From the NCBI GenBank assembly GCA_963695555.1, contig CAVOGR010000002.1, forward strand, positions 1 to 64,000: a stretch of DNA of 64,000 bases. Reading direction: 5' to 3'. Of the stretch, positions 7,089 through 25,572 are shown one piece after another (position 1 is the first letter of the stretch; the number at the start of each line of letters is the position of its first letter). This stretch comes from an uncultured Gemmatimonadales bacterium (GTDB lineage: Bacteria; Gemmatimonadota; Gemmatimonadetes; Gemmatimonadales; GWC2-71-9). The translations under genes were made by a program, and so were the position numbers. Under the pieces are notes generated by a model. That model made no database searches. It saw nothing but the letters and a program-made list of their open reading frames with translations, and was not told the DNA's origin.

Positions 7089-7113
7089 GTTGCTTCCTCA
7101 CTTAAGTTTTCAA

Positions 7114-7924: not shown

Positions 7925-8025
7925 GACGCGCCTCCTGGTGGTGGAAGGGAGAGATCGGTGGAGGCTGTCAGCTATTGGCTAATGCAACGAGCCACCTTCC
8001 CCACCGAATCCTTTGCTCCACCTCA

Positions 8026-8069
8026 ACGGTAGGAGCCCCGCGTCAAGCGAGGGTCAAGTGGGGAGTCAC
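8026..8069 (-). promoter_or_regulatory. SARP-type promoter box
   Basis: - strand: (GTGACTC)-TTGACCC-tcgc-TTGACGC-N8-TACCGT. Confidence 0.7.
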
Positions 8070-8222
8070 GGGTCGGGAAGGCGGTAGGTCGGCGGTTCGA
8101 CGTCCCCCCTTACTCCTTACTCCTTACTCCTCACTCCTCACTCCTCATTCCCCGTCTTTCCGACTTTTCAACTTCCCGTTCCCCGTCTGGCCACCCACGC
8201 CCCCGCGTCCTATCTTCGCCAC

Positions 8223-8879
8223 ATGCTGGTCGGCCACTACGGCATCGGGTTCGCCGCCGCGGGCGTCGACCGTCGGATCGCGCTCTGGGCGGCCCTGTTG
8301 GCGGCACAGCTCCCGGATATTCTGTTCGGATGCTTCGTGCTCCTGGGCATCGAGCACCTGACAATCGTTCCCGGCATCACGGCGTCCAATCCACTCGACC
8401 CGACCCACTTTCCCTATACCCACAGCCTCGTGGCAGGCTTGGTCCTGGGCGGCCTGACCTGGGTCGCATGCCTGGGCCTCGGTGCCCGCCGCCAGAGCGC
8501 GACCATCCTCGCCGCGGTCGTCGTCACGCACTGGCTGCTCGACCTCCCGATGCATCGCGCCATCCTGCCGGTGTACGACGACACCTGGAAGGTGGGGCTC
8601 GGTCTCTGGAACACACCACTCGCCGCCTTCGCGCTCGAGGCCGCGGTCCTCGTCGCCGGACTCGGACTGTATCTCAGCTCCACAGCCACGAGACCGGCCC
8701 GGCGACAGGCGCTCCTGATCGGAGCCGCGATGGTGATCGTACACCTGGCGATCTATCTCGCGCCGCGGCTCTTCTTCTCCACTTCACGACGCACCGTGTT
8801 GCTGGGACTCGGGCTCTGGCTCGCGTTCCCCGCGGCGGCAGCGCTGCTGGGTCGGCGTTCGCTCCGGGCCCAGAGCTAG
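8223..8879 (+). CDS. Membrane-bound metal-dependent hydrolase (YdjM-like)
   Basis: GH, LPD, YTHSL, HWLLDLPMH motifs; multiple TM segments. Confidence 0.75.
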   Translation: MLVGHYGIGFAAAGVDRRIALWAALLAAQLPDILFGCFVLLGIEHLTIVPGITASNPLDPTHFPYTHSLVAGLVLGGLTWVACLGLGARRQSATILAAVVVTHWLLDLPMHRAILPVYDDTWKVGLGLWNTPLAAFALEAAVLVAGLGLYLSSTATRPARRQALLIGAAMVIVHLAIYLAPRLFFSTSRRTVLLGLGLWLAFPAAAALLGRRSLRAQS

Positions 8880-8940
8880 CAGTCACACGACGGCGCGCGC
8901 CCTTCAACAGCGACATGACGACAAACGAAGGAGCTAGGGT

Positions 8941-9558
8941 GTGATGACCAACTCTAAGCTTGCACTAGGCACGCTGGTCCGTACCGGCCGGCCCGAGCCG
9001 CCCCTGACCGTCGCCAACCTGGTCACCTGGGTGCGGATCGCCGGGAGCATCTTCTGCTTTGCGATGGCCGCCGTCCACGCCGACCCTGCGTGGAACCTGG
9101 CGGGTCTCGTAGTGTATTGGGCGCTGGACCTGGTCGATGGCTTCCTGGCGCGGGCGCTCCGGCAGGAAACCCGAATGGGCGCGCAAATGGACATCATCGC
9201 CGACCGGCTGTTGATCACCTTCTTCTACTTCAACCATCTGGCCAGTCATCCCCAGTTGCTGCTGCCGATCGGGCTGTTTTTGATCGAGTTCGTGGGCCTC
9301 GACTTGTACCTGTCGATCCAGTTCCTCCGCTGGCCGATCGTGTCGCCCAATTACTTCTTCCGCATCGACCGACGCGTCTGGATGCTCAACTGGTCGTCCG
9401 TGGCCAAGATGAGCAACACCGGGCTGGTGACCGTGCTCAACCTACTGCCTGGCACGGCGTCGGTGACCGTGGCGGTGTGTCTCGGCTTGATCGGAGTGAA
9501 GCTGTATTCCTGGGTTCGCGTGCACGGGTTGCCAGGGCCGGAACAGCAGTGGATCTGA
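8941..9558 (+). CDS. CDP-alcohol phosphatidyltransferase family protein
   Basis: ANLVTWVR; DLVDGFLAR...GAQMDIIADR signature. Confidence 0.85.
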   Translation: MMTNSKLALGTLVRTGRPEPPLTVANLVTWVRIAGSIFCFAMAAVHADPAWNLAGLVVYWALDLVDGFLARALRQETRMGAQMDIIADRLLITFFYFNHLASHPQLLLPIGLFLIEFVGLDLYLSIQFLRWPIVSPNYFFRIDRRVWMLNWSSVAKMSNTGLVTVLNLLPGTASVTVAVCLGLIGVKLYSWVRVHGLPGPEQQWI

Positions 9559-9565
9559 TCGCAGC

Positions 9566-10603
9566 CTACGCGGCGACCCGCGGGCGGCGGCCGTTCAGCA
9601 ACACCCGCCGAAGCGGCAAATTCTCGAGCACCGCGAGCGGGTGCAGCAGATACCGCTCCACTTCCACGTAACAGGCGAGAAAGCACCGCGTCGCGCACGC
9701 CGGGTCGGTGATCCACTCGGCTTCGCGCTGCATGAGGGTGCACAGATCGGGATAGTCCTGCAGATACACCTGCCGGTCCATCTTCCGCTGGCACGGCAGA
9801 TACACGCGCCCATCGGGCTCGACCCGCGGCGACACCAGCGGGAAGCACCGGTGCGGGATGAAGTCGCGGATGGCGCGGAGATAGGCCGCGGAACAGAACA
9901 CCGGCCGCCCCGCCGCCTTGGCCCGGACCAGCCGGTCGAGCAGTGCCACATATGATGGATTGCCAGGCAGGTCGGGATTGGGATCGTACCGGCCGTGCTC
10001 GGGCGAGAGGGTGAGCTCGGCACCCAGTTCTGCACAGAGCGCGAGGATGTCCTCGATGCCGGCGATGGTCTCCGGTGCCACAACCGCGTGCAGACTCAGC
10101 CGGAACCCATGCTCCCTGGACAACTCAGCCGCCTGCCGGATAGCGGGCAGGATACGGCCGGTGATCCTCGGCACACCGCTCATCACGTCATTGATTGGAC
10201 CATCGATCGAGTCGAGGCTGATCACCACGTGATCGACCAGATGCAGGTCGTCGACATGGTGGTGCAACAGGAGGCCGTTGGTGCTCAACAGCAACGGCCG
10301 GAAGTCGAGCTCCCGGGCCCGCCGGAGCACCGCCCCTACGCCGGGATACATCAGCGGCTCGCCCCCCGTGATGTTGAGCGCCGGATTGTGCGGCCGGATC
10401 TTGTCGAGCAGTGCCACCGCCTCCTCCGTCGGCAGGCTCGGCTCGGGTCCGGGTGGATAGCAGTAGCGGCAGCGGAGGTTACAGCCCTTGGTGAGATAGA
10501 AATTGGTCATCAAGGGCCGGAACTGCCGGGCCCCGGTCCGCACGCAGTACAGGTCGATCAGGAAGTTGAGCGCCAATTCCGAATATGTGCGGGCGCTACC
10601 CAT
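9566..10603 (-). CDS. Radical SAM protein with C-terminal Cys-rich (SPASM/twitch-like) region
   Basis: CNLRCRYC, ITGGEP, C-terminal C...PC...CATRCFLAC; ATG 10603 overlaps upstream stop. Confidence 0.85.
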   Translation of the reverse strand: MGSARTYSELALNFLIDLYCVRTGARQFRPLMTNFYLTKGCNLRCRYCYPPGPEPSLPTEEAVALLDKIRPHNPALNITGGEPLMYPGVGAVLRRARELDFRPLLLSTNGLLLHHHVDDLHLVDHVVISLDSIDGPINDVMSGVPRITGRILPAIRQAAELSREHGFRLSLHAVVAPETIAGIEDILALCAELGAELTLSPEHGRYDPNPDLPGNPSYVALLDRLVRAKAAGRPVFCSAAYLRAIRDFIPHRCFPLVSPRVEPDGRVYLPCQRKMDRQVYLQDYPDLCTLMQREAEWITDPACATRCFLACYVEVERYLLHPLAVLENLPLRRVLLNGRRPRVAA

Positions 10604-11381
10604 GCCTGCCTCCCTCCGCCGGCGACTGGTCGATGGACTCGTGCAGGGCGCGGAGCTGGCGAGCTCGCAGGGCCTCACCACCGTCACCTGGTACCGGCTC
10701 CCCCCGCGCCAGCCGACGGAGCGCCGCCAGTCGTTGCAATGCCGTGAGGTTGGTGAGCAGGGCAAGCAACCAGACGATCGGCGCAAGCGGGAGCGTCGCC
10801 ACCCGTGTGATGCCGAACCCCAGAGCCTCCGCGGTGACGGTGAGCCAGCCGACCAGCAGGGTGTGCCCGACGCTCAGCAGCAGCCCCGCGGCAATCAGCG
10901 TCACCCTGTCCTGCCGCCGGAGCACGCCGGTGCGAAAGGCGTATCCATGGGCCTTGCCGACCGCCATGACGTAGCTGGTCGCCATTGAGCCCACCAACGC
11001 GAGTACCGCGGCCAACGCCGTCGCATCATGTCCGCCGCGCGCGAAGAAGATCGTGAGGCCGACGTAGACCGCGGCGTCCGCGTAGCGGTCGAGGATCGAG
11101 TCGAGGATGCCGCCGAACACCGTCACGCGATTGGTCAGTGCGGCGACCTTACCGTCACTGAAATCGAGAATCCCGCCCGCCACGATGAGCGCGCACGCAG
11201 TGATCAGGTGCCCGAAGGCGATGAAGACGCCGCCGCACAGGGTCAGCGTGAACGCCGCCACGGTAATCGCATTCGGGTTCACCCGGGAAACGATCAACCG
11301 GCGGATGACCGGCGTCACCGAGCGGGTGAACCAGGCGTCCAGCCAATCGGGGATGAGTCCCGTCCGCGTCTCGGATCTCAT
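10596..11381 (-). CDS. CDP-alcohol phosphatidyltransferase (PgsA/PIP-synthase-like)
   Basis: PNAITV; DFSDGKVA...GGILDSILDRYAD. Confidence 0.9.
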   Translation of the reverse strand: MRSETRTGLIPDWLDAWFTRSVTPVIRRLIVSRVNPNAITVAAFTLTLCGGVFIAFGHLITACALIVAGGILDFSDGKVAALTNRVTVFGGILDSILDRYADAAVYVGLTIFFARGGHDATALAAVLALVGSMATSYVMAVGKAHGYAFRTGVLRRQDRVTLIAAGLLLSVGHTLLVGWLTVTAEALGFGITRVATLPLAPIVWLLALLTNLTALQRLAALRRLARGEPVPGDGGEALRARQLRALHESIDQSPAEGGRHG

Positions 11382-12266
11382 GCCGGTGCCTCCCGCTCGG
11401 GTACCAGCACCCGCAGCGCCCGCCGGTCGAACGACCAGAGCGCCGGGGTGGAGCCCGCGGCCTCGCCATCCGCGAAGATGTCGCGGGGCGACTCCGTTAC
11501 GACCCGTACCGTCTGCCCGCGCCGCATCACGACACCCTGACGATTAGTATGCGTGCCGCGAAACACCCGGGGGAACTCGCGCAGTAAGCGGCCGCGCGAC
11601 ACCTCGGCCACGATACACACATCGAGCGCTCCATCGTCCATCTCGGCTGCGGGAGCGATACGCATACCTCCCCCGTAACATGGTCCGTTGGCCACCGCCA
11701 CCAGCGTGATTGCGCCACTCCAAGTCCAGTCGTCGACCGTCACCTCCGCCTCGAACGGCCGAAACGCGGCCAACGCCCGCAACACGCAGACGACATATCC
11801 GGCCGTTCCGCCCAGATATCCGGCGCGATCCCGTGCCAGCCGGTTTACCAAGGCGTCGAAGCCGACGCAGGCGACCGAGGCGAACGGCGTGCCGTTCACG
11901 GACGGGAGATCGACCTGGCGCTCGCGCAAGTGCCGGCCGCGCAAGAATGCCTCGCCGTCCCATCGTCCGGCGTCCAGGTTACGCAGGAAGTCGTTGCCTC
12001 GACCCGCTGGGACGACCCCGCACGGCAACCGCGCTTCGGCCAGAGCATCGAGCACCCCGTGCACCGTCCCGTCACCGCCCACCAAGACCACGCCTTCCGT
12101 TCCCTTGGCCGGTGCAGCCAGGATCAGTTCACTGGCCTGCTCCGCGCTTGCGGTGACTACCCACTCGAGGTCGTGATCCCCGGAACCGCTCACGCGTAGA
12201 CGCGTCCAGTTGCCGGAGCGCCGCCCCGCCTCCGGCATGCGGATTAACCAGGCCGAGCAGCCGCAC
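11378..12266 (-). CDS. Diacylglycerol kinase family lipid kinase (YegS/DagK), frameshift near 12170-12210
   Basis: GTG 12266 after AGGAGG gives VRLLGLVNPHAGGG; other frame gives GGDGT, PAGRGNDF, GFDA, NGPCYGGGM, DGE. Confidence 0.85.
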
Positions 12267-15200
12267 CGTGTTCCTCCTCCCAGGCTCGGGCCTGCATGAC
12301 AAAATTCTCGAGCAGGCCATACATCTGTTCGTCGCGGCGTCCGTCGTAGTGAAGGTGCCGAATCGGGAACCCGCCCAGATCGTCGGACACGCGCCGGCTC
12401 AACGCCTCCACAATGCCGCCCACCATGCAGCCGAATGGCGATACGTGGATGACGCCGCCTACCCCGCGCCGGAAGAGATCGATGCTTCGACCGATCCCGA
12501 CGATGGTCTCCCCTTCGAACGTGTTCGGCACATAGGGTGCCGCCAACCGGAACAACTCCGCAACCGAGGGATACCCGGCATTGGCCAGCCGTCCGCGCAC
12601 GGCCCGGGTGAGCCGTGCCATCTCGAAGCGCTGCAGGGCGTCTATCCCACGGAGCGAGAGTTCCCGTTTCCACTGGCCTTCGTAGCGACAATGGAGCCGC
12701 GCCGTCCAGTTGGTGTACAACACCCACTCCGCGAGTGATGGGTACCAGACCTCCGCGCCGAGCGCTTCGAGTTGGTCCGCCACCGCGGCGTTGGCGGCCG
12801 CGTTGCAGCGCACGTAGTTCTCCCCCAGGAGTCCCACCCGAACCGGTGGGCGGTGATTGCGGAGCGGCAGCGCCTCGAGCCGATCGAACCCGCGCCGGAG
12901 CACGTGGGCAAGGCCCTCGCCCCGTTCGATCGCCATACCGAGCGCGGCCAGCCCTTCCTTATAGGGTGCATCTGCCTCCGCGCGATCGACCGCCCGCGCC
13001 CGGCATTCCCGCCACTTTCTGAATAGGAGGTCCGTTGCCACGATTCCACTCCACACGCGGCGTTGAAAGCCCGCGGGGACCATGCCGAACTTTTCATAGA
13101 ATTCGGGATCCTGGCTCGCGTTGAAGATCGGGACGTCGGAGTGTCCCTGATCGTCGAGCACCACCCGCTGCAGCCACGGGTACTGCCCCAATCGACATGG
13201 TCCGTCGCCGGCGATCATGAAGAACGCCGGTTCGGGATCACTGGGGCGCTGGTGCTCGAGCTGTCGCAGCATGTCGCCGAGGACGAAGCTGCAGGGGAGA
13301 CATTCTCCGCCGTCCAACGCGGCCCGGCCCAGCGCTACCGATTCCTCGTCCGGGAGCGGGAGCACCTCGGCGTCCACGCCGCACGAGCGGAACGCAGCGG
13401 CGAAGGCGATGGCGTGGTCCGACATGCGGGGGATGAAGAGTCGGCGGGTCGCGAGGTCCGTCCCCGTTACCGCGCCTGGTGCGGATGGAGAAGCCGGAGT
13501 GGGTGCCCGCCGTGACCCGAACGTCCACCGGAACGCTTCGACCCGGGTGTGGATGCCGTTGAACTCGCTGTGCTCGTCGACTTCGATCTCGAGCAGCGGC
13601 ACGTCCCCGAGCTCGCGGCGCAGCATGTGCACAATGAACGAGTCGGGGCCGCACCCGAAACTCGACACGCTGATGGCCGAGATGTCCCCGAGGCGGCGGA
13701 GTGCCTGCGCGGTCTGGAGGATCCGCTTTCCATAATACCAGTACATGTCGTGCAACTCGCCGCTCGCGAGCGCCTCATCCCGCACCATCTCCATCGGTAC
13801 CCCGGTGACCCCGACGTCCGCGAGCACCCGGGTAAGCCGCAGCTGGACCTGCGGGTCGCACACCGTGTACGGGCGGGCGAGGATCACCGCCGTGGGCGAT
13901 GAGCCCCGCCGAGCCAGCACCTCATCCCCACGTTGCAGCATCTCCCGGCGGAAGGTGTCTTGCGCCTCACGAGCCGCGGCGAACGCGGCGCGCGTGTGAC
14001 GAGGCGACCGACCCAGCGTGCGGCCGAAGGCCACCATATCGTGCTCGGCCAGCCGCGGAAGTGACAGCCGGAGCCGCGGGATCAGGTACTCCACACCCTC
14101 GGGAAGGAGCGCCCGCGTCGTGTAGGGCCAGCCCTGCACGGCCGGGCACACATGATCGAGCCGCTCCGCCACGGTGCCGTGCTCGAGGCTCGCGACCGAG
14201 GGAAGCAGAATGCGTCGTACCCCGGCCGTCACCAGCGCGTCCACATGACCATACGCGACCGTGAGCGGCAGACACGCGTCGTGCCGTGCCAGCACCATGC
14301 CCCGCTCCAGTGTCGCCCGAGTGGTAGGCGGGGACAGTACATACGGCACACCGAGGTGACCCAGGAACGCGGTCCAGAACGGGAGCTGCTCGAGGAAGAG
14401 CAACGCGCGCGGGATGCCTACGGCATCCGCATCCCCCGGCGAAGCTTCCGCCACCCACCGGGTGGCGGCCGCCTCCCGTTCGGCAAACAGATCCAGCCGC
14501 TGGGCGGACCGGCCACCGTTTCCCCTGTCTACCTCGCCTCGTCCGTCGTAACGGTCGCACAGCCCGCCCGCAAAGAACCGGCGGCGCGATGGTCCTTGGG
14601 TGACGTGGACGGTGCAGCGATTACTGCATTGTGGGCAATTGAAGCTCCGGGTGCGGATCCGGGAGAGATCGCGCGCTCGAAGCCCCTGGAAGCGCGATGG
14701 ACCGCACACCTGCTCCGCCGCCAGCAGCGCGACACCGATTGCACCGGCCGCGTCGTTGAACGGATGCACCGTGACGTCGTGTTCCAGCACCTTCCGAAGT
14801 GCCGCGACGACTGCACCATTCGCGGCCACACCGCCCTGAAACGCGATCCGCCGGCCCGGTCGGTGGCGTCCAACAACTCGCCCGAGGTAGTTGCGCACCA
14901 CCGCATAGGCCAGTCCGGCCGCGAGGTCCTCGCGCGCGCAGCCTTCCTGCAGCCGGCGCGCGATCTCCGACGCCATGAAGACCGTGCAACGCTCTCCCAA
15001 CTCGATCGGCGCCCGGGAGCGGAGCGCTTCGCGCTCGAATTCCCCGACGATGTCCAGCCCAAGCACGGCTGCCATCTCCTCGAGGAAGGAGCCCGTGCCC
15101 GCAGAGCACACCTTGTTCATCTCGAACCCCACCACCGCCCCATGATCCAGCCGGATGTACTTGGCGTCCTGCCCACCAATGTCGAAGACCGTGTCGGCGT

Positions 15201-16449: not shown

Positions 16450-18296
16450 GATGCGCCCCCGACCGCATCGTTCCGCCGGCGCACCAGGTAGTCGCCGATC
16501 ACCAGTGCATCGAGGCCCGCCCGGAGAAAACATTGGATCGCGTCGTCCGGGGTGCACACGATGGGCTCGCCGGCCTGGTTGAACGACGTATTGAGCAGTA
16601 CCGGCAAGCCGGTCAGCGCCTTGAACTCCTGCAACAGGCGGTGAAATCGTGGCTCGTGCGCCTCGCGTACCACCTGCACGCGGGCTGACCCGTCGACGTG
16701 CACGACGCCCGCGATCCGCTGCCGCTCGGCAACGCGGGCGGGATAGGTCACCACCATGAAGGGCGCCGCGGTGTCGTCCGGGATATCGAAGAACGCGTGC
16801 GCGTCCTCGGCAAGCACGCTGGGCGCGAAGGGCCGGAACCCTTCCCGGTGCTTGACCAGCGCGTTGATGCGGTCCCGCACCTCGACCGATGCCGGTGTTG
16901 CGAGGATACTGCGGGCACCGAGCGCGCGCGGTCCGAATTCCATGCGGCCCTGATGCCACGCGACGATCGCGCCATCCGCCAGGAGCCGCGCGGCGTGGGC
17001 CTCGATCTGTTCCATGCGCTGCCAATCGATTCCTGGCGTTTTGCTCAATGCGTCTTCGATGGCGCGGTCCGTGTACCGGGGACCCCAGGTGGTATGCAGG
17101 ATCGCTTCGGAAGTCGGATTGCCATCATACGTGTGGTGGGCATAGAGCGCCGCTCCGAGCGCCGCACCGTCGTCCGATGCCGCTGGCTGGACGAACAACT
17201 GGCTGAACAGGTTGGAACGGACGATGGCACCATTCAGACATGCGTTGAGCCCCACACCGCCGGCGATACACAGGCGTTCGAGCGAAAACCTCCCGCGCAA
17301 ATATCTGAGCGAGTGCAACACAGCCCGTTCCAATGCCTGCTGCAGCGCCGCGGCCACGTCGGCACTTTGTCGGCCGTACGCTCCTGGCGTCTCGGCCGGA
17401 CCGAATTGGAGCTCGAGCCAGTGGTACAGATCGGGCCGGCACATGGATCGCGTCGACCACACGCCATCCGCGTCCAGATGGACCAACTCGCGAAACACCG
17501 CGGCGAACCGGTCGGCGTTCCCATACGCCGCGAGGCCCATGGTCTTGTACTCGTCCCCATAGGTGCGGAACCCGAGATACGCAGTGATCAGCTGGTAGAG
17601 GGTGCCCAGGGAGCTCGGCAGTGGTATCCTGCCCTGCGGCGTGACCTGGCCACCGGTACCCACGGCCCACATCGCGCTTTCTTCTTCGCCGTAGCCATCC
17701 AGCGTCAGGCACAAGGCTTCGTCGAAGCCCGAGCTGTAGAACGCCCCGGCCGCATGCGCCAGATGATGCGGTACGCTCAGGAACTGATCCGGGGCGATCG
17801 GGCGGTCGGCAATCTGCTCCAACCGTGCCCGCACCACCGCCGGTGCGAGCCGACTCGCAAATGCATCCAAGTACTCCTGCTCGAGCAAGCGACCCAGGTC
17901 GGGCTCGAGTCCGCTCGCCACCCGCTCGAACCGTGCGCGCACCGCTTCGGGTGTGAAGCTGCAATAATGCGCCACGAGGTTCACGTCGGCCCAGGTGCAA
18001 CCTGCTTCCTCCAGACAGTATTGAATGGCGCGGCGTGGCAGGAGGGTGCGGCCGGCGAGGTTGAATCCGTGCTTCTGACGCGTGAACCGCTCCTCGGCGG
18101 CGCACGCCACGAGGCGGCCGTCCACCAGAATTGCCGCCGCCGCATCGTGGCCGATGAGTCCGAGCGGGAAGAACTGGAGGGGGACGGTACCGTTCCAGTT
18201 ACTGAACGGAGCGTCCGGAGACACCTGGCCGGCATACGGGTGGGGGGTGCCGGAGTGGCTGGCATTCTCGAACCCGCTGATCCCGAGGACGATCAT
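16446..18296 (-). CDS. O-carbamoyltransferase (NodU/CmcH/TobZ family)
   Basis: HDAAAA, EERFTR.KH, HHLAHA, GGVGLN, EFGPRALGARS, RPFAP, HVDGSARVQ, NTSFN. Confidence 0.95.
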   Translation of the reverse strand: MIVLGISGFENASHSGTPHPYAGQVSPDAPFSNWNGTVPLQFFPLGLIGHDAAAAILVDGRLVACAAEERFTRQKHGFNLAGRTLLPRRAIQYCLEEAGCTWADVNLVAHYCSFTPEAVRARFERVASGLEPDLGRLLEQEYLDAFASRLAPAVVRARLEQIADRPIAPDQFLSVPHHLAHAAGAFYSSGFDEALCLTLDGYGEEESAMWAVGTGGQVTPQGRIPLPSSLGTLYQLITAYLGFRTYGDEYKTMGLAAYGNADRFAAVFRELVHLDADGVWSTRSMCRPDLYHWLELQFGPAETPGAYGRQSADVAAALQQALERAVLHSLRYLRGRFSLERLCIAGGVGLNACLNGAIVRSNLFSQLFVQPAASDDGAALGAALYAHHTYDGNPTSEAILHTTWGPRYTDRAIEDALSKTPGIDWQRMEQIEAHAARLLADGAIVAWHQGRMEFGPRALGARSILATPASVEVRDRINALVKHREGFRPFAPSVLAEDAHAFFDIPDDTAAPFMVVTYPARVAERQRIAGVVHVDGSARVQVVREAHEPRFHRLLQEFKALTGLPVLLNTSFNQAGEPIVCTPDDAIQCFLRAGLDALVIGDYLVRRRNDAVGGAS

Positions 18297-18305
18297 GGCT
18301 GACGC

Positions 18306-19235
18306 TCACCCGTCGCCCACGGTCTCGAGAGTCCGGCCGGACACGAAGTAGTAGGCCGGGCGCAGCAGGCATTCGAGTGCGACCAGTCGGGTGCGGCGCG
18401 AGAGCGCCGCGAGTCGCTTCTTCAGGTCCGGATGTGTGGTCCACCGCGCCGGGTCTTCCGACACCCCGAACCAGTGCTCGAACGTGAGCCCGTGGGCGTC
18501 GAACATGTGGAACAGGTCATCCAGCGTTACTGGCTGCTCGTACGCCGGAAACATCTGGTCGGCCAGCCAGGCTGGGTGCTCCAACAACCAGCGGATGCCG
18601 TCCGTTCCCGAGCCCCGGGGCGTGTAGAATCCTGCGCCTACCGCGTAGCGGTCTCCCAAGTCCTCCAGGAAGGCCCGGGCCAGTGCGGCGCGATCTTCAT
18701 CCCCCCGAGCCGGGTCGCCGAGCAAGTCCAGGAACTTGCGGTTGAGCAGGTGTGCTGCCCGTCCGTGGCGGCCGTACATCCAGAGCACCAACCGCCCTCC
18801 GGGTCTGAGTCGCGCGACGAGGTTTGCCACGGCAGTGGACACCTCGGGCACGTGATGCAGCACGCCAAGCGCCAGCACCACGTCGAACGTGCCGAGGCTT
18901 TCGAGCGACCCGGTGGCGTCCGCCCGTTCGAAGAGCAGATTTGCCATTCCCGCCGCGCCGGCAAGATCCCGTGCCTGGTCGAGCGCGGTGGACGAGACGT
19001 CCACGCCGACGAACTCCACCGCGGGCAGCCGCCGGGCTAGGGCAATCACGGTGTGTCCGGTGCCGCAGCCTACGTCCAGCAGCCGCGCAACAGGTCCAGC
19101 CGGACGTCCGAGCCACTCGCCGAGATACCGGAGCAGGGCCAGTCCTTCCGGACTCGTGTGATCGGTGCCGGGAAACGGCCAGCGATCGTAGTGCCGCGAG
19201 ACCGCGGTCGCCGCGTGATCACGCGCGTTGCTCAT
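18306..19235 (-). CDS. Class I SAM-dependent methyltransferase
   Basis: LLDVGCGTG, FDVVLALGVLHH, LRPGG. Confidence 0.9.
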   Translation of the reverse strand: MSNARDHAATAVSRHYDRWPFPGTDHTSPEGLALLRYLGEWLGRPAGPVARLLDVGCGTGHTVIALARRLPAVEFVGVDVSSTALDQARDLAGAAGMANLLFERADATGSLESLGTFDVVLALGVLHHVPEVSTAVANLVARLRPGGRLVLWMYGRHGRAAHLLNRKFLDLLGDPARGDEDRAALARAFLEDLGDRYAVGAGFYTPRGSGTDGIRWLLEHPAWLADQMFPAYEQPVTLDDLFHMFDAHGLTFEHWFGVSEDPARWTTHPDLKKRLAALSRRTRLVALECLLRPAYYFVSGRTLETVGDG

Positions 19236-20743
19236 ACGAAGAACCCCGTCCGATGCGAGAATCGGTCCGCCACCAGGAAGTACCGATGTAGCCGTTGCGC
19301 TACCGCCGGGTCTACATCCCCCTCCCGGAATTCGCTGCTGATCACATTCACCAAGAACGACGCGTCGATATCGCGCTGGTTGAAGAAATTCGGCAGCACC
19401 CGGTCTGCGAGGGCCACCCGTTTCGGGCTGAAGAAGAATTCGCGGACGCCCTCCCGTTTGATCTCATCGAGCCGCTCGCGGCTGAATCCGTAGGGTCCCT
19501 CCCGGCTCCGCACGTAGTCCTCTTCGAGCCCCAGCTGGAATGCCTTCATGTCGCAGGTCTGTTCGGCGAGGCGGTAGAGCGGCGTGCCCGGGAAGTAGAC
19601 CACGACGAAAAACATTGCCAGCACCAGGTCGCTCTCATTGGCAAATCGGATGGTCTCGAGCGCCTCCTGTTCGGTTTCGGTCGGGAACCCGAGCATGAAG
19701 TACCCCTTGGAGACGATCCCCTTCGCCGTGCTCCGGGCGATCGCCTGACGGATACGATCGAGCTGCATGTTCTTCTGGATCAACTTCTGAATGCGCGGTG
19801 AGCCGCTCTCAATTGCGTACGAGATGTACCGGACGCCGGCCTCCCACATCGCGTCGACCATCTCATCGTCCACCCGATCGCCGCGCAGGCCGTTGGGAAA
19901 CGAGATGACCAGCTTCAGTCCTTCGCGAACGACGCGGTCGAAGAACGTCATCGCGCGCTCACGATCGAGGTTGAAGATGTCATCGATGATTTGGAAGTTG
20001 GTGATGCCCCACTCGTCGTGGAGCCGCTTCATTTCGGCGAACACTCGCTCGGCGGAGTGCGCCCGCATTCGTTTACCAAACACCTGGTGGCAGTAGAGAC
20101 ATCGGTAGGGACAGCCTCGGGAGCTGAACAGGTTTGCGTGCGTCACGTTGCGGCGGAACGAGAAATCCACGTGCCCTCGGTTGATGCCGAGAAAATCGAC
20201 GAGCCGATGGTCCGGCATAGGCAACGCGTCGAGATTCTCGATCAGCGGCCGGGGCACGAACCGGATGCCGCCGTCATGGCGCACGGCGAGGCCCGGAATG
20301 CCGTCGAGTGATTTCCCGTCGAGCAGCCGGCCGACCAGCTCTACTGCCGTCTGCTCTCCTTCCCCCACGGCCGCGGCATCGAACGCCTCGTCGGCGAGCA
20401 CCTCCTCTGGATTGTCCGACGCGTGTGGTCCGCCGGCCACGACGATGGGCACGCGGTACTCCTGCTTGGCCAGTCGTGCAATCTCGTGCAGCGGGCCACG
20501 ACCCATGGTGAGACTTCGGAGGCCGAGCACATCGGGGGGCCACGCCGCAAGCAGCGCTCTCAGCCGCGCGAGGCCGTCTGTCTTGTGCTCGTAGGATTCA
20601 ATCCTGAGATCTATGCGCTCCCCGAACGCCTGCGTGAGCACCGTACCGATGTAGACCAGGCCGATCGGATATTCCAGCATATCCACTGTGGTGTCGAGCG
20701 TCACATGGCTGACGTCGAGCAGCAGGACCCGGAGCGGCTTCAT
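19232..20743 (-). CDS. Cobalamin-binding radical SAM protein (class B methylase-like)
   Basis: ATG 20743 MKPLRVLLL; PIGLVYI, GGPHAS, GEGE, SRGCPYRCLYC, DDIFN, IESGS, MLGFPTET. Confidence 0.9.
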   Translation of the reverse strand: MKPLRVLLLDVSHVTLDTTVDMLEYPIGLVYIGTVLTQAFGERIDLRIESYEHKTDGLARLRALLAAWPPDVLGLRSLTMGRGPLHEIARLAKQEYRVPIVVAGGPHASDNPEEVLADEAFDAAAVGEGEQTAVELVGRLLDGKSLDGIPGLAVRHDGGIRFVPRPLIENLDALPMPDHRLVDFLGINRGHVDFSFRRNVTHANLFSSRGCPYRCLYCHQVFGKRMRAHSAERVFAEMKRLHDEWGITNFQIIDDIFNLDRERAMTFFDRVVREGLKLVISFPNGLRGDRVDDEMVDAMWEAGVRYISYAIESGSPRIQKLIQKNMQLDRIRQAIARSTAKGIVSKGYFMLGFPTETEQEALETIRFANESDLVLAMFFVVVYFPGTPLYRLAEQTCDMKAFQLGLEEDYVRSREGPYGFSRERLDEIKREGVREFFFSPKRVALADRVLPNFFNQRDIDASFLVNVISSEFREGDVDPAVAQRLHRYFLVADRFSHRTGFFV

Positions 20744-21781
20744 GAGACACCCCCGTCGTGGACCGTGAGCCAGCGAGGGCCGCGGGCGTGGGATAACGTT
20801 GGACCGACAAACAGCACCGTCCCATCGGGCTCGTGTTCGCCGCGGCTCGAGCCCGGCAAGTCGAAACAGCTGCTCGATCAGATGGTTGCGCGCATTGGCG
20901 CGATACCGGGCGGCCAGGGTTGTCGCTCCGTCGAGCGCGGCCTGGCGCCGAACCCAGGCAAGAAAGAATCCGGCTATCCCGCGGGACAGAACCCGGCACG
21001 ACAGCAAGAAGACCGCAAGCTCCCAGCGATCTTTGTGACGACGGCAGGCGGCCACCCCGATCCGTCCGTAGTCGGTGAAACGGTCCGTAAGCTCCGCGAT
21101 GAACAGGCGCCAGCGGTCATCCGTGAGCCAGCCCTCGATGGCGTCGGGCTCCCACACAATGCCGGTTGAGTTCAACTGATGGGTGCGCTGGAGCAACTCC
21201 AACACACGCGCCAGGTCGCCAGGCACTGCATACCGCAGGGTCAACTCGGTGTTACACCATGCCAGGAAGTCGCTTTGAGACATTCCGGATGTTTGCGCTG
21301 CACGCTCGCGCTGTTCCATTCCTCGATAGGTAGCGCGGCGGGAGCGCGATTCGGGCGACAGCGCCGTGGGTGAGAATTCCGGTAGGGTCGGGAGTGCCTG
21401 GCAGGCGTCGGCCGAATAGGTACGGACGGCGGGGAGTATGTGCCGGACTTGTTCACGCTCGAACGCCTCGTCATCGATGAACCCAACGGCATCGAGGGCG
21501 ACATCGAGCTGTGCGGCGATCGTACGCACGCTCCGGACCTTGCTCTCCCAACCGATCTGCGGATGGAGGAAGTAGCGCGCCAGCCCCTTCTGCTGGAGGA
21601 GCCGCTGTGCTTGGTCTGGGTCGTTCCGGCTGGCGACCGATTGCAGGACGCCGCGGCGGTCCAATTCCTCGACCACCCCCCGCACGCCGCGTCGGAGCCG
21701 GCAGGCGTCGGACTCGAGCAGCGTCCCGCTCCACAGCGTGTGGTCGAGGTCCCAGATGAGGCACTTCACGACGTCAGGCAT
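20740..21781 (-). CDS. FkbH-like glyceryl-ACP transferase/phosphatase (HAD-IIIC), frameshift near 20842
   Basis: VKCLIWDLDHTLW, SVASRN, FIDD..FER, RTHQLN, LSCRV; shifted frame ends ...PRWLTVHDGGVS* at TGA 20740. Confidence 0.88.
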
Positions 21782-23105
21782 GGGCCGCCTCGGCGTCACC
21801 ACTGCCCTTACCCCAGTTGCGCCGCTGCGCCAGGTTGAGCTTCAGGGAGAGGATTCCCATCGCCCAACCCAGCCGGTAGGCCGTCTGCACCGCGCCCTTT
21901 ACCACGTTGCCCAGCGAATAGAACTGTTCCTGACACCAGCGGGTCCCCGCCGGCGAGTTCGTCCGCGCTCATCCCTTTCGGGGACGAAGCAGACGTTCGG
22001 GCTGATGTACTTGGACCAGTCCCACTCGGTGATTCGGCCCTCGGCCCGCAATCGGCTGTGGATCGGCGTACCGGGATACGGCACCAGGACGCTGAAGTTC
22101 ACCAGGTTGGCCCCGCCTTCTCGCACCACGCCGAGCGCGCGCTCGAAGACGTCGGGACCATCGTCGTCGAGTCCGAAGACGAAGGCGGCGACGACTGCGA
22201 TCCCCCTGCGTTGGATGGCACGGATCGCCGCGGCATAGCGCTCCTCCGCGCTCTGGCGCGGCACCTTGGTCATGTGGGCCCGTCGGGTCAGCGAATCGAG
22301 GCCGACAAAAAGCCCTATGCAGCCGCTCTCGGCCGCCAGGTCGAGTGCCTGCTCGTCTTCGGCGATGTGCCAGGTCGCTTCCGCGATCCACTGCCGGCCA
22401 ACCGGACGGAGCGCCCGGAACAGCGCGAGGGACCACGCCCGGTCGGCGTAGAGGTTGTCGTCGGCGAACAGCACCGGTTCACCGGGCATGCGCCTGATCT
22501 CATTGGCAACCCGCTCCACACGTCGCAGCCGCGTGCGCATTCCGACGTAGGCGTAGAGCGAGCAGAATTCGCACCCGAACGGACAGCCCTTGCTGCCCTG
22601 CACCACCCACGGGATGCCGGTAGTCCTCGGCCCGCAAGAGCTCGCGCCGCGGCTCCGGGGAGGCGTCGAGATCAACCAGTCGGTCGGCACGGTAGCACCG
22701 GCTCATTGCTCCTCGGCGGAAGTCGTCCACCAGCGTAGGCCAGGTGGCCTCCGCCTCGCCGATCACGATGGCGTCGGCGTGGGCTTGTGCTTCATCGGGG
22801 TTGAGCGAGGTGTGGATCCCGCCGAGCACCACCGGCACTCCATCGGATCGGTACCGCTGCGCCAGCTCGTAGGCGTACGGCGCGGTCGGCGCTTGGACTG
22901 CAATCCCCACGAGATCGGGGCCCCAGTCGCTCGGGATTTCCTCGACCGATTCGTCCACCACGCGCACCTCGATGTCGCGGGGCGTCAGCGCGGCGACCGT
23001 CAGCAGCCCGAGGCCCGGGTATCCGATTCCCTGCCGCAGCCGGCGGCGCTCCTCGACCGCGAGGGAGCGGGCGGTCGTGACGGGGTCGATCAGGAGGAGG
23101 CGCAT
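21774..23105 (-). CDS. Cobalamin-binding radical SAM protein (frameshifts near 22619 and 21950-21980)
   Basis: MRLLLIDP, LGLLTVAALTP, GGIH, GEAE; SKGCPFGCEFC, DDNL, PYPGTP; last frame ends at TGA 21774 overlapping the FkbH ATG. Confidence 0.85.
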
Positions 23106-23375
23106 ACGCCGACCTCGCTTCGCGGCAACGAACATTGCGATGTCCCGAACCGTGGCGAAGTTGCCGATTACCAGCTCGTCGTCCTCCACATGGATCCCGA
23201 AGTGCTGCTCCAGGAACGCGACTACCGAGATCACGCTGCCCGAATCGACGATTCCGCCTTCGAGCAGCAAATCGTCGTCGCGCAGGCTGTCCGGAGGATC
23301 GCCCGGCAAAAAGTTCTCGAGGATGTAGGCCCGTATCTCATGGGCGATCAGCTGCACGCCTGGGTAGACTCGCAT
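23106..23375 (-). CDS. Acyl carrier protein
   Basis: IRAYILENF...LLEGGIVDS..VVAFLEQHFGI.V.D.EL...NFATV; read in frame with the downstream rSAM, probably because of an indel. Confidence 0.85.
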
Positions 23376-24363
23376 TCATACCGCCGCGATTGGATGTTCG
23401 AGCCAACGGTCGGGGGCAAAGAATCCCTGCTCTGCAAACGCGCCAACGGCGTCCACCACGCCCTCAACCAGCGTTCGGCTCCCCTCAAAGCCAAGGAGGG
23501 AGCGCGATTTTGCGGTATTGCAGCCCCAGTAATCGAATTGGCGCGCGCCATGTGCCACGACATCGAATGAGCGCGCCCGCGCAAGCGCCCGGTCTGCAAC
23601 CGCCGGGTCCACTCTTGCAGTACCGGCCAGCAATTCCACGGCCTGGACGACGGCCCGGCTCGAACTCTTCCCACGAGCAGAACGCCGGGTCGGCGACGAG
23701 AAAGAGCTCACCGCTCGGCCCATCCACGTCCAGGGCGCGGAGGCATGCGCGCGCCAAGTCGAGCACGTGCACGAAGCTCAGCTGGACGATCGGCGTCTTC
23801 CATGGACGCTCGCCGGACCGGAGCAGAGTGCGCAGGTGATCGGCGCCGCGCTGGTCCGCGCGGCCATACACGAAGGATGGGCGGAGGATGGTGATGGGGA
23901 GCCGACCGGTATAGCCCAAAGCCACCCGCTCGGCAGCGAGCTTGCTTTCCCCGTACACTGTTTGCGGCCTGCAAGGATCAGTCTCGACGAGGAGGCTCCC
24001 GTTATGCTTTGGTCCCATGGCCGCGAGCGAACTCACCAGCACAACTCGCCGCAGTCCGACACCCGACGCGAGACAGCCATCGAGCAACGCGGCGGTCCCT
24101 CCAACATTGGCGTCTCTCAGCTGCGACGCACGGCGAGCACCGAGAAGTGCGGCAAGATGGATCACGTAATCGGCCTCGGCCACTGCCGCGCGGTAGGTAT
24201 CGGGTTGAGTGACGTCGCCGCGCACCCAGGTGAGCCCGTCGGTTGGCAATCCGGTCGTCTCCCGCCTCGTGAGAGCCAAGACGTGGTGCCCTTCGGCGAG
24301 CAGGGCTTCGACGACTCTTCGCCCAACAAACCCCGAGGCACCGGTAACAAAGACGCTGGTCAT
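23376..24363 (-). CDS. NAD-dependent epimerase/dehydratase (extended SDR), frameshift near 23660
   Basis: VTGASGFVG, HLAA, SSLAA, YGESK, RP..VYG; C-terminus continues in ORF 23376-23723. Confidence 0.85.
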
Positions 24364-25112
24364 GGCTCCGCCCCTTCCGAATGGGTGCCGTTTCCAGCCG
24401 TTACTCGCCGGGCCCGTGCTACTTCAAGGGCTGACGGTCGAGCGCAACGCCAGACGGTGAACCGTACCGGACCCGCGCCGGGCGGGTACGCGATTGCGAG
24501 CCACGTTCCGCCGTGCGATTCGGCCACCACATACCAGGGCCCCTCACCCACTCGCCGATCTCGCACGCGTACCAACCACCCGTCGCCGTAGAGACCCGCG
24601 ATCACGGTGCGTCTGGGATGCACGGCAAGGCCGGTGCCCATCGCCTTGAGCACGGCCTCTTTGACGGTCCATGTCACGGTCGGCACCTGCGCGTCGGCCA
24701 CGCCGGCGGCGGCAACAAACGCGAGCTCACGCGCACAAGCCACTTCGTGTGCGAACGCTTCACCCCACCGGTGTGCCGGCTCGAGATCCGCCCCGAGCGG
24801 CACCCGTCCGACCGCGCCGAGCCCACACCCTCCGGCGTGCGCGATCGAGCAATGCACGGCAGAGCCCACGATCTTGGGTCGGCCCGCCGAGTCACGGATT
24901 ACTTCGATTTCGGAGAACTCGCGTGGTCCGCCAGCTCGCCGGTAGGCCTGCTTGAGCGCGAGCCGGCCTGCAAACCAATGCCCCTGGCGCCTCACCGGCA
25001 GGCGGTCGTATTCGAGGTGTTCCCTGTCGGTGAGCCACTCGGATAGGAGCATCTCAGTCATGCAGGGCCGAGCCCGAATGAGCACAGCTTCAATAGACAA
25101 ATCGCCAAGCAT
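24360..25112 (-). CDS. 4'-phosphopantetheinyl transferase (Sfp-type)
   Basis: AGRLALKQA, GRP, SIAH, GADLE, WTVKEAVLKAMGTGL. Confidence 0.9.
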   Translation of the reverse strand: MLGDLSIEAVLIRARPCMTEMLLSEWLTDREHLEYDRLPVRRQGHWFAGRLALKQAYRRAGGPREFSEIEVIRDSAGRPKIVGSAVHCSIAHAGGCGLGAVGRVPLGADLEPAHRWGEAFAHEVACARELAFVAAAGVADAQVPTVTWTVKEAVLKAMGTGLAVHPRRTVIAGLYGDGWLVRVRDRRVGEGPWYVVAESHGGTWLAIAYPPGAGPVRFTVWRCARPSALEVARARRVTAGNGTHSEGAEP

Positions 25113-25211
25113 GCTGGAGTGGTCTCTCTGACTGAGGTCAGTTGGGCCTATCCGCAACAAGGGATCTCCTCGCAACGGGCGGGCTCTTCGATGCCCCGTG
25201 CTCTGACCTCG

Positions 25212-25243
25212 ACAGTGACGGTCCGGTATCAAGTACCAGTCAA
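25212..25243 (-). promoter_or_regulatory. SARP-type promoter box upstream of lipid cluster
   Basis: - strand: TTGACTG-gtac-TTGATAC-N8-CACTGT. Confidence 0.6.
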
Positions 25244-25281
25244 GCCAGCGCCAAGGCCGCTCAAACGAGGCCTTCTATCGG

Positions 25282-25481
25282 CTCAGGCGGGTTCGCGGAT
25301 GGAGGGGCGTCAGGAAGGCGGCGTCAGACCAGCGGCGGGCTCGCCCGAGACAGGGGCGAAGAAGTCACTATTGCGCCCTCTTACCACTGGGGAGAGGAAG
25401 CCATTGTGAATTGTAGGGGAAAACTTCTTCAGAAATGAATGGATTAGGGTTCTCCCTAATCCCGACGAAGGAATTCAGGTT
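25282..25481 (-). promoter_or_regulatory. Conserved upstream element, copy 3
   Basis: GATTAGGG-ttct-CCCTAATC dyad, TGAA-N17-TTCA, GGCGTCAG x2; colinear with copy 2. Confidence 0.7.
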
Positions 25482-25572
25482 CTTGCATGGGAGGCGTTGG
25501 CGGGTCGGGAAGGCGGGAAGGCGGTCGGTCGGAAAGTCGGAAAGTCGGTCGGAGGGTCGACCTCCTTACTCC

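Follow-up and report, generated by a model that had tools for sequence, protein, structure and literature searches.

What product is made by a bacterial gene cluster that joins a glycerate-loading carrier module to enzymes of phospholipid synthesis? This question is raised by positions 9566-25232 on the minus strand of a window of 64,000 nucleotides (nt) from an uncultured Gemmatimonadales bacterium (NCBI GenBank assembly GCA_963695555.1, contig CAVOGR010000002.1, positions 1 to 64,000), where Pfam searches of 34 open reading frames (ORFs) and NCBIfam searches of 18 ORFs revealed 12 co-oriented, mostly overlapping genes. These 12 genes are one conserved, translationally coupled unit. In the reading favored here, which we hold with about even confidence, they would constitute one operon for an anaerobic, oxygen-sensitive pathway to a tailored ether phospholipid, with a glycerate-derived C3 unit built on an acyl carrier protein (ACP). 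Environmental and palaeoclimate studies use bacterial ether lipids as markers, and these lipids are also relevant to the 'lipid divide' between bacteria and archaea. To our knowledge, few bacterial ether-lipid genes have been identified, and these are mostly single genes (plsA/plsR, ger, mss, and tes) or belong to the elb cluster.

Gene Content and Organization

The GC content of the cluster region is 0.60-0.70, and open frames are abundant on both strands; therefore, genes were assigned by their family matches. In their order from 25232 down to 9566, the genes are the following.

24360..25232, minus strand: Sfp-type 4'-phosphopantetheinyl transferase (PPTase); Pfam ACPS 56.3 bits (cut-off 25); start uncertain
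23376..24363, minus strand: extended short-chain dehydrogenase/reductase (SDR; NAD-dependent epimerase/dehydratase); Pfam Epimerase 128 bits; in two frames here
23106..23375, minus strand: ACP of about 90 amino acids (aa) with a DSG serine motif; NF052616 64.8 bits, under the cut-off of 130
21774..23105, minus strand: B12-binding radical S-adenosylmethionine (SAM) enzyme 1 (rSAM1); Pfam B12-binding and Radical_SAM; in three frames here
20746..21802 (end approximate), minus strand: FkbH-type HAD-IIIC phosphatase/glyceryl transferase; TIGR01686 214.6 bits (cut-off 146.65)
19232..20743, minus strand: B12-binding radical SAM enzyme 2 (rSAM2); B12-binding 50 bits, Radical_SAM 84 bits
18306..19235, minus strand: class I SAM-dependent methyltransferase; Methyltransf_12/25/11, 65-76 bits
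16446..18296, minus strand: NodU/CmcH/TobZ-type carbamoyltransferase (CarbT); Carbam_trans_N 185 bits, Carbam_trans_C 235 bits
12244..16449, minus strand: PlsA/Ger-type fusion protein of about 1400 aa; two BcrAD_BadFG domains, DUF2229, and a second dehydratase/reductase-like domain
11378..12265 (start approximate), minus strand: YegS/Rv2252/BmrU lipid kinase; TIGR00147 120.2 bits (cut-off 118.65); DAGK_cat and YegS_C
10596..11381, minus strand: phosphatidylinositol-phosphate (PIP)-synthase-type CDP-alcohol phosphatidyltransferase, integral membrane protein; PF01066 48 bits (cut-off 22)
9566..10603, minus strand: radical SAM enzyme 3 (rSAM3) with a Cys-rich C-terminal region; Radical_SAM 68 bits

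All 12 gene families named in the original prediction, which was made from the sequence without database searches, were thus recovered by Pfam and NCBIfam, co-oriented on the minus strand. The claim that the genes are mostly translationally coupled was also confirmed, with several start/stop overlaps of 4 or 8 nt. From the ORF coordinates, overlaps of 4 nt are found between the genes for the PPTase and SDR (24360/24363), rSAM2 and the methyltransferase (19232/19235), and the kinase and CDP-alcohol transferase (11378/11381). The CarbT and PlsA-like genes likewise overlap by 4 nt (16446/16449), with the PlsA start inferred from the relative G259, while the CDP-alcohol transferase and rSAM3 genes overlap by 8 nt (10596/10603) and the SDR and ACP genes directly adjoin (23376/23375). 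As the prediction had stated, the Pfam scan of the cluster detected neither a ketosynthase nor a nonribosomal peptide synthetase (NRPS), and no acyltransferase, cytidylyltransferase, or AMP-binding domain was detected in it either. The CDP-alcohol transferase and a pump of the RND/MMPL type, which is linked to the cluster in some relatives, are the only predicted integral membrane proteins; the tailoring enzymes are predicted to be soluble.

Conservation and Synteny

Co-conservation of the genes had been set beforehand as the test by which the prediction could be refuted. When run, it did not refute it: the genes are collinear in the Gemmatimonadota relatives G259, G517, G580, and G448 and on four of four metagenome contigs carrying close homologs (G000 denotes the genome under study, other G numbers the genomes of relatives, and L numbers fetched loci). 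All 12 genes are collinear in G259, with an MMPL-type gene after them, and G517 has 13 collinear genes, including an RND/MMPL gene upstream of that for the PPTase. In G448 the genes for the RND protein, PPTase, SDR, ACP, rSAM1, and the start of FkbH are collinear until the contig ends, and in G580 those from the PPTase through the PlsA-like protein are collinear within the 12 kb fetched.

Regarding distribution, FkbH was searched in four same-genus genomes, in 60 relatives, and in a 401-genome phylum sample. The four same-genus genomes gave no match, and the 60 relatives just two, both weak (29% identity). FkbH-domain matches at E ≤1e-20 were present in 69 genomes of the phylum sample; the closest was that of G259 (71% identity), and the next best were at 40-42%. 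In six FkbH neighborhoods fetched, other cluster genes were seen only in G259, where the full set of 12 is present. The short FkbH homologs of L029-L033, at 35-42% identity, were considered as cluster markers and rejected, as their neighborhoods lack other cluster genes; FkbH alone is therefore no marker of the cluster. Orthologs of rSAM1 (at least 69% identity) were found in five genomes of a 401-genome family sample (G000, G259, G580, G448, and G517). Paralogs at 37-42% identity are present in six family genomes, G517 having both an ortholog and a paralog, and at the three paralog loci fetched, L069 (G517:C9), L070 (G513:C9), and L071 (G451:C31), no other cluster gene was found.

The carbamoyltransferase was rejected as a synteny anchor in the species genomes, where it has five relatives at 36-43% identity, none of them syntenic. 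A metagenome scan with a two-sequence carbamoyltransferase alignment as query returned 19 loci. All four with a CarbT identity of at least 53% are syntenic, and none of the 15 at ≤38% is. The syntenic locus L034 has 11 genes, from the SDR to rSAM3, L037 has those from the SDR to CarbT, and L035 and L036 have methyltransferase-CarbT-PlsA. The GC contents of these contigs are 37% (L036), 60% (L037), 70% (L034), and 73% (L035), and this range among carriers indicates that the unit is present in very different organisms. The junction between the CarbT and PlsA-like genes is kept at all seven loci that reach it (G000, G259, G517, G580, L034, L035, and L036), and its 4-nt overlap was seen in L035 and L036.

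Among the 90%-identity clusters listed for rSAM1, 108 are at 54-100% identity, after which identity drops to ≤44%. The source names among the close clusters include Gemmatimonadales, Gemmatimonadota, Eisenbacteria, Zixibacteria, and Planctomycetota, and one Zixibacteria metagenome-assembled genome (MAG) occurs in the close lists of both rSAM1 and the C-terminal region of the PlsA-like protein. The flanking genes vary between loci (CorA, DPP-IV, and a GntR regulator are among them), which places the cluster boundaries at the PPTase (or RND) gene and the rSAM3 (or RND) gene.

The Putative Glycerate-Carrier Module

The FkbH protein matches TIGR01686 over profile positions 2-319 of 323. In an alignment of five orthologs and five homologs at 35-42% identity, the motifs WDLDxT (DLDHT, the HAD motif DxDxT) and SCRV are invariant in all 10 sequences, and both are present in G000. 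We take the Cys of SCRV, in the C-terminal domain, to be the carrier of the glyceryl group. The ACP gene lies two genes upstream of that for FkbH, and the PPTase gene is the first of the operon. The PPTase is 55% identical to the G259 copy; the ACP of G259 is a separate ORF of 95 aa with a PP-binding match of 21.2 bits (cut-off 20.8). As described in the accessible text of PMC7489565, members of the FkbH family convert 1,3-bisphosphoglycerate to glyceryl-S-ACP, and by analogy this FkbH, with an ACP and a PPTase of its own, should form D-glyceryl-S-ACP from 1,3-bisphosphoglycerate. An assignment of the carrier as the 'OlsHI' ornithine-lipid ACP was rejected, its score being under the cut-off; the accessible part of PMC12493201 makes no mention of an ACP.

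Both rSAM1 (CPFGCEFC motif; 77-84% identical to a 442-aa ORF of G259) and rSAM2 (CPYRCLYC motif; 83% identical to the G259 copy) combine PF02310, at 46-50 bits (cut-off 32.1), with PF04055, the build of cobalamin-dependent (class B) radical SAM enzymes. Their nearest solved structures, all remote, are AprD4 for rSAM1 (69 bits) and rSAM2 (63 bits) and TokK for rSAM2 (55 bits). rSAM2 is probably a C-methyltransferase. The interleaving and overlap of the ACP, rSAM1, FkbH, and rSAM2 genes suggests that both radical SAM enzymes act on the ACP-tethered unit.

The SDR, intact in G259, has the motifs GASGFVG and YGESK, and its equivalog scores are all under cut-off (HpnA 99.6 bits, thioester-reductase domain 70 bits, OleD 67 bits). 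The methyltransferase is 67% identical to its G259 copy, and CarbT, which scores 173 bits with the NodU model, under cut-off, is 75% identical.

The PlsA/Ger-Type Protein

The PlsA-like protein contains PF01869 in two stretches and DUF2229 (PF09989) at 153-155 bits, and no further DUF2229 protein was detected in the G000 genome. An AlphaFold model of its C-terminal 738 aa (predicted local distance difference test score, pLDDT, 86.7; predicted template modeling score, pTM, 0.87) had 3o3m_B (E 9.4e-6, TM(target) 0.52), 8s02_B, and 6eno as best Foldseek matches. These matches are (R)-2-hydroxyisocaproyl-CoA dehydratase, the benzoyl-CoA reductase BzdNO, and a double-cubane cluster protein, with E-values of 1e-5 to 1e-4 and TM scores of 0.44-0.55 relative to a single target subunit. 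From its domain matches and this fold, the protein is of the full Act1-Act2-Red1-Red2 build, which is that of single-gene PlsA in the available text of PMC12838417; two BcrAD_BadFG domains and DUF2229 ('BBD') form the core of Ger as presented in the accessible part of PMC13159169. PF06050 (HGD-D) was not matched in the PlsA-like protein of G259 at E up to 5, is present in the precomputed Pfam data for some orthologs, and BBD-only forms of the family are described in the available portion of a preprint.

Homologs of about 1400 aa align with the C-terminal 738 aa over 94-99%, and 48 listed clusters are at ≥42% identity, followed by ≤37%. Six Cys residues are invariant in 20 sequences and, like the C-terminal fold, agree with 2-hydroxyisocaproyl-CoA dehydratase, BzdNO, and the double-cubane protein. 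The Ger survey includes homologs in 'superphylum FCB' and, judging from its accessible text, may already have counted this PlsA-like gene (PMC13159169).

The main rival to an ether-forming role is a dehydration of glyceryl-ACP by the PlsA-like enzyme, which would then be a 2-hydroxyacyl-thioester dehydratase converting ACP-bound D-glycerate to 3-oxopropanoyl- or 3-hydroxyacryloyl-ACP, to be elaborated by the SDR, the radical SAM enzymes, the methyltransferase, and CarbT into a small acyl or alcohol product, lipid-attached or not. D-Glyceryl-S-ACP is an (R)-2-hydroxyacyl thioester and, from family knowledge, belongs to the substrate class of these dehydratases. The best C-terminal fold matches, 2-hydroxyisocaproyl-CoA dehydratase and BzdNO, are thioester enzymes, but this likeness is equally expected for a true PlsA. 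The PlsA-like protein also stands in a subclade of its own (≤37% identity to other family members), and its gene comes immediately after the ACP-tailoring genes, with an overlap. Against this, the next genes encode a lipid kinase, a membrane CDP-alcohol transferase, and, in three genomes, an RND/MMPL pump, and the fused build of two activases with DUF2229 is known so far from the lipid-ester enzymes PlsA and Ger only, to the extent covered by the accessible texts of PMC13159169 and PMC12838417. The dehydratase is considered unlikely, and the formation of an ether from a lipid ester remains the preferred role of the protein.

Phospholipid Enzymes, rSAM3, and the Linked Transporter

The lipid kinase has the motif GGDGT in both G000 and G259, and its margin over the TIGR00147 cut-off is narrow. 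The CDP-alcohol transferase, with PF01066 at 48-51 bits across orthologs, has at least three hydrophobic segments, as a multi-pass membrane protein. Its best models, those of archaetidyl- and phosphatidylinositol-phosphate synthases (AIPS/PIPS), score 91-113 bits over nearly the whole length, with equivalog cut-offs of 170-350, and it also matches the DIPP-synthase model at 59-66 bits. The signature of CDP-alcohol phosphotransferases is D(x)2DG(x)2AR(x)8G(x)3D(x)3D. All four Asp and both Gly of this signature are kept, while the Arg is replaced by Ala or Val (DGKVA[A/V]) in all four orthologs compared (window 10596-11381, L028 16235-17053, L034 16302-17060, and L066 17712-18509), which may reflect another donor or acceptor. 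The other PIPS-like gene of the genome (C4, 41786-42493), 26% identical to the cluster gene, keeps the Arg (DGAVAR) and adjoins a gene for inositol-1-phosphate synthase (~43241).

rSAM3 has a CNLRCRYC motif and matches TIGR03961 (PTO1314) at 70-85 bits and HpnH at 34-45 bits, full-length but under the cut-offs; its G259 copy has a DUF3463 match of 24 bits. A hopanoid side-chain cluster, considered on the weak matches to HpnA, HpnH, HpnJ, HpnR, and an HpnN-like protein, was rejected, as the carriers lack the cyclase and a true HpnH. In the five carrier genomes (73-94% complete), squalene-hopene cyclase (PF13243) had no match in four and a weak one in G448 (27.7 bits, cut-off 26.1), and true HpnH (TIGR03470) was over cut-off in none; thus, rSAM3 is no hopanoid enzyme here.

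A gene encoding an RND/MMPL-HAE3 transporter is joined to the cluster in three genomes, with copies that are 67% identical. It lies upstream of the PPTase gene in two of them and downstream of that for rSAM3 in one and, standing at either end, brackets the whole gene set. The linked transporter supports a hydrophobic, exported product. In G448 (L067 8362-10116), an ORF of 584 aa with a weak radical SAM match (20 bits, under cut-off) was found directly upstream of the RND gene.

It is quite improbable that the product is soluble, whether as a natural product or as a polyol-phosphate-type compatible solute. A pathway of this kind would employ the CDP-alcohol transferase to link one soluble alcohol to another, in the manner of di-myo-inositol-phosphate synthesis, with a polyol as the substrate of the kinase. 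The match of the transferase to the DIPP-synthase model is in keeping with this, as are the lack of an acyltransferase in the cluster, the predicted solubility of all tailoring enzymes, and the occurrence of FkbH/ACP pairs otherwise in natural-product pathways, as presented in the accessible text of PMC7489565. However, the kinase is over the YegS/Rv2252/BmrU lipid-kinase cut-off, the best models of the transferase are phosphatidyl- and archaetidylinositol-phosphate synthases, a lipid is indicated by the PlsA/Ger-type enzyme and the MMPL-type pump, and no ketosynthase, NRPS, or FabH-like partner was detected by Pfam.

Proposed Pathway

The catalytic motifs of the enzyme families are kept in the cluster, among them DxDxT and SCRV in FkbH, GGDGT in the kinase, CxxxCxxC in all three radical SAM enzymes, and GxxGxxG and YxxxK in the SDR. 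The favored pathway to an ether phospholipid would begin with activation of the dedicated ACP by the PPTase. FkbH would dephosphorylate 1,3-bisphosphoglycerate and load D-glycerate on the ACP as a thioester, and the tethered C3 unit would be modified by rSAM1 and rSAM2, either by C-methylation or, for rSAM1, by an AprD4-like diol dehydration. The methyltransferase and carbamoyltransferase may decorate its hydroxyls, and the SDR may reduce a keto or thioester function, helping release of the alcohol. The lipid kinase and the PIP-synthase-like CDP-alcohol transferase would then bring the C3 unit into a phospholipid, for which two variants can be drawn. In a backbone variant, the former carboxyl carbon of D-glycerate would become, by stereochemical reasoning, sn-3 of glycerol; as this bypasses glycerol phosphate, the lipid kinase would be needed. 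In a head-group variant, the released and phosphorylated C3 alcohol would be the acceptor for CDP-diacylglycerol, as in PGP and PIP synthases. Conversion of an ester-bound chain to a vinyl or alkyl ether, with low-potential electrons supplied at the cost of ATP, would be the task of the PlsA/Ger-type enzyme; rSAM3 might make a further change, and the RND/MMPL-type pump, where present, could move the lipid outward. Acyltransferases and CDP-activation would be supplied by housekeeping genes.

The dedicated lipid pathway of the original prediction is upheld in part. A lipid product is supported by the PlsA/Ger-type build, the YegS kinase, the membrane CDP-alcohol transferase, and the RND/MMPL pump; a self-contained lipid pathway is not encoded, since acyltransferase, cytidylyltransferase, and phosphatase domains are absent from the conserved unit by Pfam. 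This absence weighs against the favored pathway, as do several further points. The SDR, the three radical SAM enzymes, the methyltransferase, and the CDP-alcohol transferase score far under all named equivalog cut-offs, so that the reactions given for them are guesses. The G259 PlsA-like protein lacks a PF06050 match even at E up to 5, and the PlsA-like proteins form a separate subclade, with at least 42% identity within it and 24-37% to the other family homologs listed. The signature Arg is replaced in all four transferase orthologs, G000 itself lacks the RND partner, and its cluster as assembled has at least seven frame-disturbing extra bases. We know of no lipid from these uncultured organisms.

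A more specific version is rather doubtful. It proposes a third route to a lipid backbone or head group, starting on a carrier directly from the glycolytic intermediate 1,3-bisphosphoglycerate in place of glycerol phosphate, in which the unit would be C-methylated by the cobalamin radical SAM enzymes (butanetriol- or pentanetriol-like), O-methylated, carbamoylated, reduced off the carrier, phosphorylated, and made part of an ether phospholipid; rSAM3 may add to the vinyl-ether double bond.

Frame Disturbances in the Assembled Cluster

In this assembly the SDR gene is split, rSAM1 lies in three frames, the starts of the PPTase and kinase genes are disturbed, the ACP is fused in frame to rSAM1 (ORF 22500-23375), and FkbH, whose last ~37 residues are in another frame, reads through into rSAM2. 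The earlier gene reading was corrected for this assembly in these respects, its gene families being retained. All 12 genes are separate, intact ORFs in G259. Relative to that genome, the breaks lie at ~23660 (SDR), ~23113 (ACP/rSAM1), ~22616 and 21952-21986 (rSAM1), ~20842 (FkbH end), ~12203 (kinase start), and ~25118 (PPTase), and one extra C is directly visible in the rSAM1 alignment. Every disturbance is a single extra base; read in their correct frames, the shifted pieces contain no stops and show 57-84% identity to G259.

Logan contigs of four public runs (X1-X4) were aligned to positions 9500-25300; the runs shared ≤0.20 of sampled words and were used for indel sites and cover only. Run X4 covered 30 of 30 bins at 90-99% likeness, and its contigs omit one base at 20842, 21952, 21986, 22616, 23113, 23662, 25118, and 12203. 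Those of X2 omit a base at 20842 and 12205, in agreement with X4, and two short, near-identical records (record 8 of X1 and record 24 of X3) each have one base fewer across a break region, though the alignment table does not put it at the identical coordinate. The breaks in the G000 cluster are probably assembly errors, as the contigs of relatives lack single bases at exactly those sites.

Outside the cluster, three long minus-strand ORFs of the GH57/glycogen-metabolism type (49891-52227, 51792-54623, and 53834-56152) overlap mutually by hundreds of bases, which suggests the same kind of single-base assembly error in housekeeping genes.

A decaying array of pseudogenes in G000 is very improbable. 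The extra bases, at least seven, do break or fuse the PPTase, SDR, ACP/rSAM1, rSAM1, FkbH/rSAM2, and kinase start, and X4 and X2 represent other strains than G000. Yet every break is a one-base insertion between pieces that remain stop-free and similar to G259, precisely these bases are absent from the contigs of relatives at 90-99% likeness, and the overlapping housekeeping ORFs at 49891-56152 point to the same type of error.

Comparison with Known Systems

Like PlsA and Ger, the PlsA-like protein unites two BcrAD_BadFG activase domains, DUF2229, and a second domain of the reductase/dehydratase type in one chain of about 1400 aa. PlsA systems comprise the two-gene operon PlsA/PlsR of Clostridium perfringens and the single-gene PlsA of lactic acid bacteria, while Ger is from Thermotoga maritima and Desulfatibacillum alkenivorans, and in the accessible descriptions of Ger no FkbH, ACP, B12-binding radical SAM, or CarbT neighbors are mentioned. 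The characterized PlsA and Ger enzymes are active anaerobically, according to the accessible text of PMC13159169. In contrast to those systems, the gene studied here lies in a 12-gene operon with FkbH, ACP, B12-binding radical SAM, and carbamoyltransferase genes, and its product in a separate subclade.

Like the FkbH/ACP glycerate modules of polyketide pathways, the cluster has an FkbH over cut-off, an ACP of its own, and a gene of the O-methyltransferase type nearby. The uses of glyceryl-ACP described in the available text of PMC7489565 are the five-gene methoxymalonyl-ACP set, with two dehydrogenases, and the 'glycerate-utilisation operon' of tetronates, with a FabH-like protein. By Pfam, none of the 12 (13) genes encodes a FabH-like partner, one of the 3-hydroxyacyl-CoA or acyl-CoA dehydrogenase type, or a polyketide synthase; two B12-binding radical SAM enzymes, an extended SDR, a carbamoyltransferase, and phospholipid enzymes are present instead.

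The elb clusters (elbB-elbE) of myxobacteria, Acidobacteria, and sponge symbionts have diacylglycerol (DAG) kinase and CDP-alcohol phosphatidyltransferase genes as frequent neighbors, as given in the accessible part of a preprint (10.64898/2026.06.23.733905). The present cluster resembles them as a putative dedicated ether-lipid cluster with a carrier-bound acyl group, a reductase, and genes for a DAG kinase and a CDP-alcohol transferase. It differs in that no protein of the ElbD type (adenylation-ACP-reductase-acyltransferase) is present, the putative ether-forming enzyme is of the oxygen-sensitive PlsA/Ger type, and the carrier would be loaded by FkbH and not by an adenylation domain.

Regarding the remaining enzymes, the CDP-alcohol transferase resembles PIP and archaetidylinositol-phosphate (AIP) synthases in its best-scoring models, its multi-pass membrane build, and its four signature Asp, but stays under the equivalog cut-offs (170-350) and has Ala or Val in place of the signature Arg in all four orthologs. 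As in the AprD4/AprD3 system, an SDR is encoded beside the B12-binding radical SAM enzymes, for both of which AprD4 is the nearest solved relative. Among the cobalamin radical SAM methylases (TokK, HpnR, and PhpK types), TokK matches rSAM2, these similarities being remote and far under family cut-offs. In distinction from these systems, rSAM1 and rSAM2 each contain a recognizable B12-binding domain, and they would act on a lipid or on a C3 acid attached to the ACP, and not on an aminoglycoside or carbapenem.

Each enzyme family, and dedicated ether-lipid clusters as such, are already known. A published description of FkbH/ACP with two cobalamin radical SAM enzymes, CarbT, a PlsA/Ger-type protein, and phospholipid enzymes was not found in the full-text literature, a body that leaves most subscription journals outside, and within that body the original prediction, which knew of no characterized pathway with this combination, holds. 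Two unrelated operons lying side by side, one for FkbH/ACP tailoring and one for an ether phospholipid, are the least probable explanation, as, although no literature was found joining FkbH with PlsA, with a phosphatidyltransferase, or with ether lipids and radical SAM enzymes, the junction between the two sets is kept at all seven loci, including L036 at 37% GC, its genes overlap by 4 nt, and the RND gene brackets the whole set, upstream in two genomes and downstream in one.

The cluster is a conserved and transferable operon in which a PlsA/Ger-type enzyme is joined by eleven further genes, including a carrier-based glycerate module not known to have been linked to lipids. It gives a distinct PlsA/Ger subclade of uncultured sediment bacteria a first physiological context. 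It is a concrete expression target for a new lipid class and a candidate origin of unusual backbones or head groups under anoxia. If a carrier-built lipid route does operate in Gemmatimonadota, Zixibacteria, and Eisenbacteria, which are widespread lineages of anoxic sediments, it could be a source of orphan sedimentary ether lipids.

Genomic Setting

The genome under study, a Gemmatimonadota MAG, comprises 14 contigs with a total of 3.57 Mb and is 87% complete. The cluster lies within a segment that also holds two genes on the opposite strand, as follows.

~428..25600 (boundaries approximate), no strand: strain-specific segment of ~25 kb holding the cluster, delimited by flank spacing in G002 and G003
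8941..9558, plus strand: second CDP-alcohol phosphatidyltransferase, PgsA/Cls-like; PF01066 52 bits; canonical signature motif
8223..8879, plus strand: YdjM-like membrane protein; PF04307 27.3 bits, just under the cut-off of 29

The matches of window positions 9-427 and 25607-26531 are 1.5 kb apart in the same-genus genome G002 (C1:38377 and 39934) and 126 bases apart in G003 (C166:5347 and 5221), and collinearity with G002, at 89% identity, extends through the window from 27007 on. With its flanks this close together in both genomes, the cluster thus lies within a ~25-kb segment that is missing at that site in G002 and G003. The cluster is patchy, being present in five of 401 family genomes, yet has orthologs in other phyla, and its GC content (0.668) is near that of the genome (0.651); this pattern fits horizontal transfer.

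The two plus-strand genes converge on the 3' end of the cluster and had been included with it in the original prediction. Both are present, but they are not part of the conserved unit, as no counterpart of either was found in L028 or L034-L037. The segment also holds genes for a Ser/Thr kinase-TPR protein (477-2984) and a trypsin-like peptidase (3009-4253). Three paralogous minus-strand ORFs within it (4549-5277, 5399-5992, and 7379-7978) share 68-87% nucleotide identity and have no Pfam match, and each adjoins an array of tandem heptamers.

A further minus-strand block at 29025-32934, shortly beyond the segment, encodes an HpnA-like SDR (197 bits, under cut-off), a PAP2 phosphatase, a second SDR of the epimerase type, and an alpha/beta hydrolase. 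As G002 has this block too, at 89% identity, it belongs to the genus core and not to the cluster. Tandem arrays of the 7-base unit are found at 5335-5399, 7329-7379, 8094-8158, 28199-28331, and 34604-34656, with an inverted copy at 34338-34367. The unit, CTCCTTA or CTCCTCA on the plus strand, reads TAAGGAG or TGAGGAG on the minus strand and is Shine-Dalgarno-like. The arrays are intergenic, mostly just 5' of minus-strand genes, and have dozens of matching sites across the four same-genus genomes, all of which contain them.

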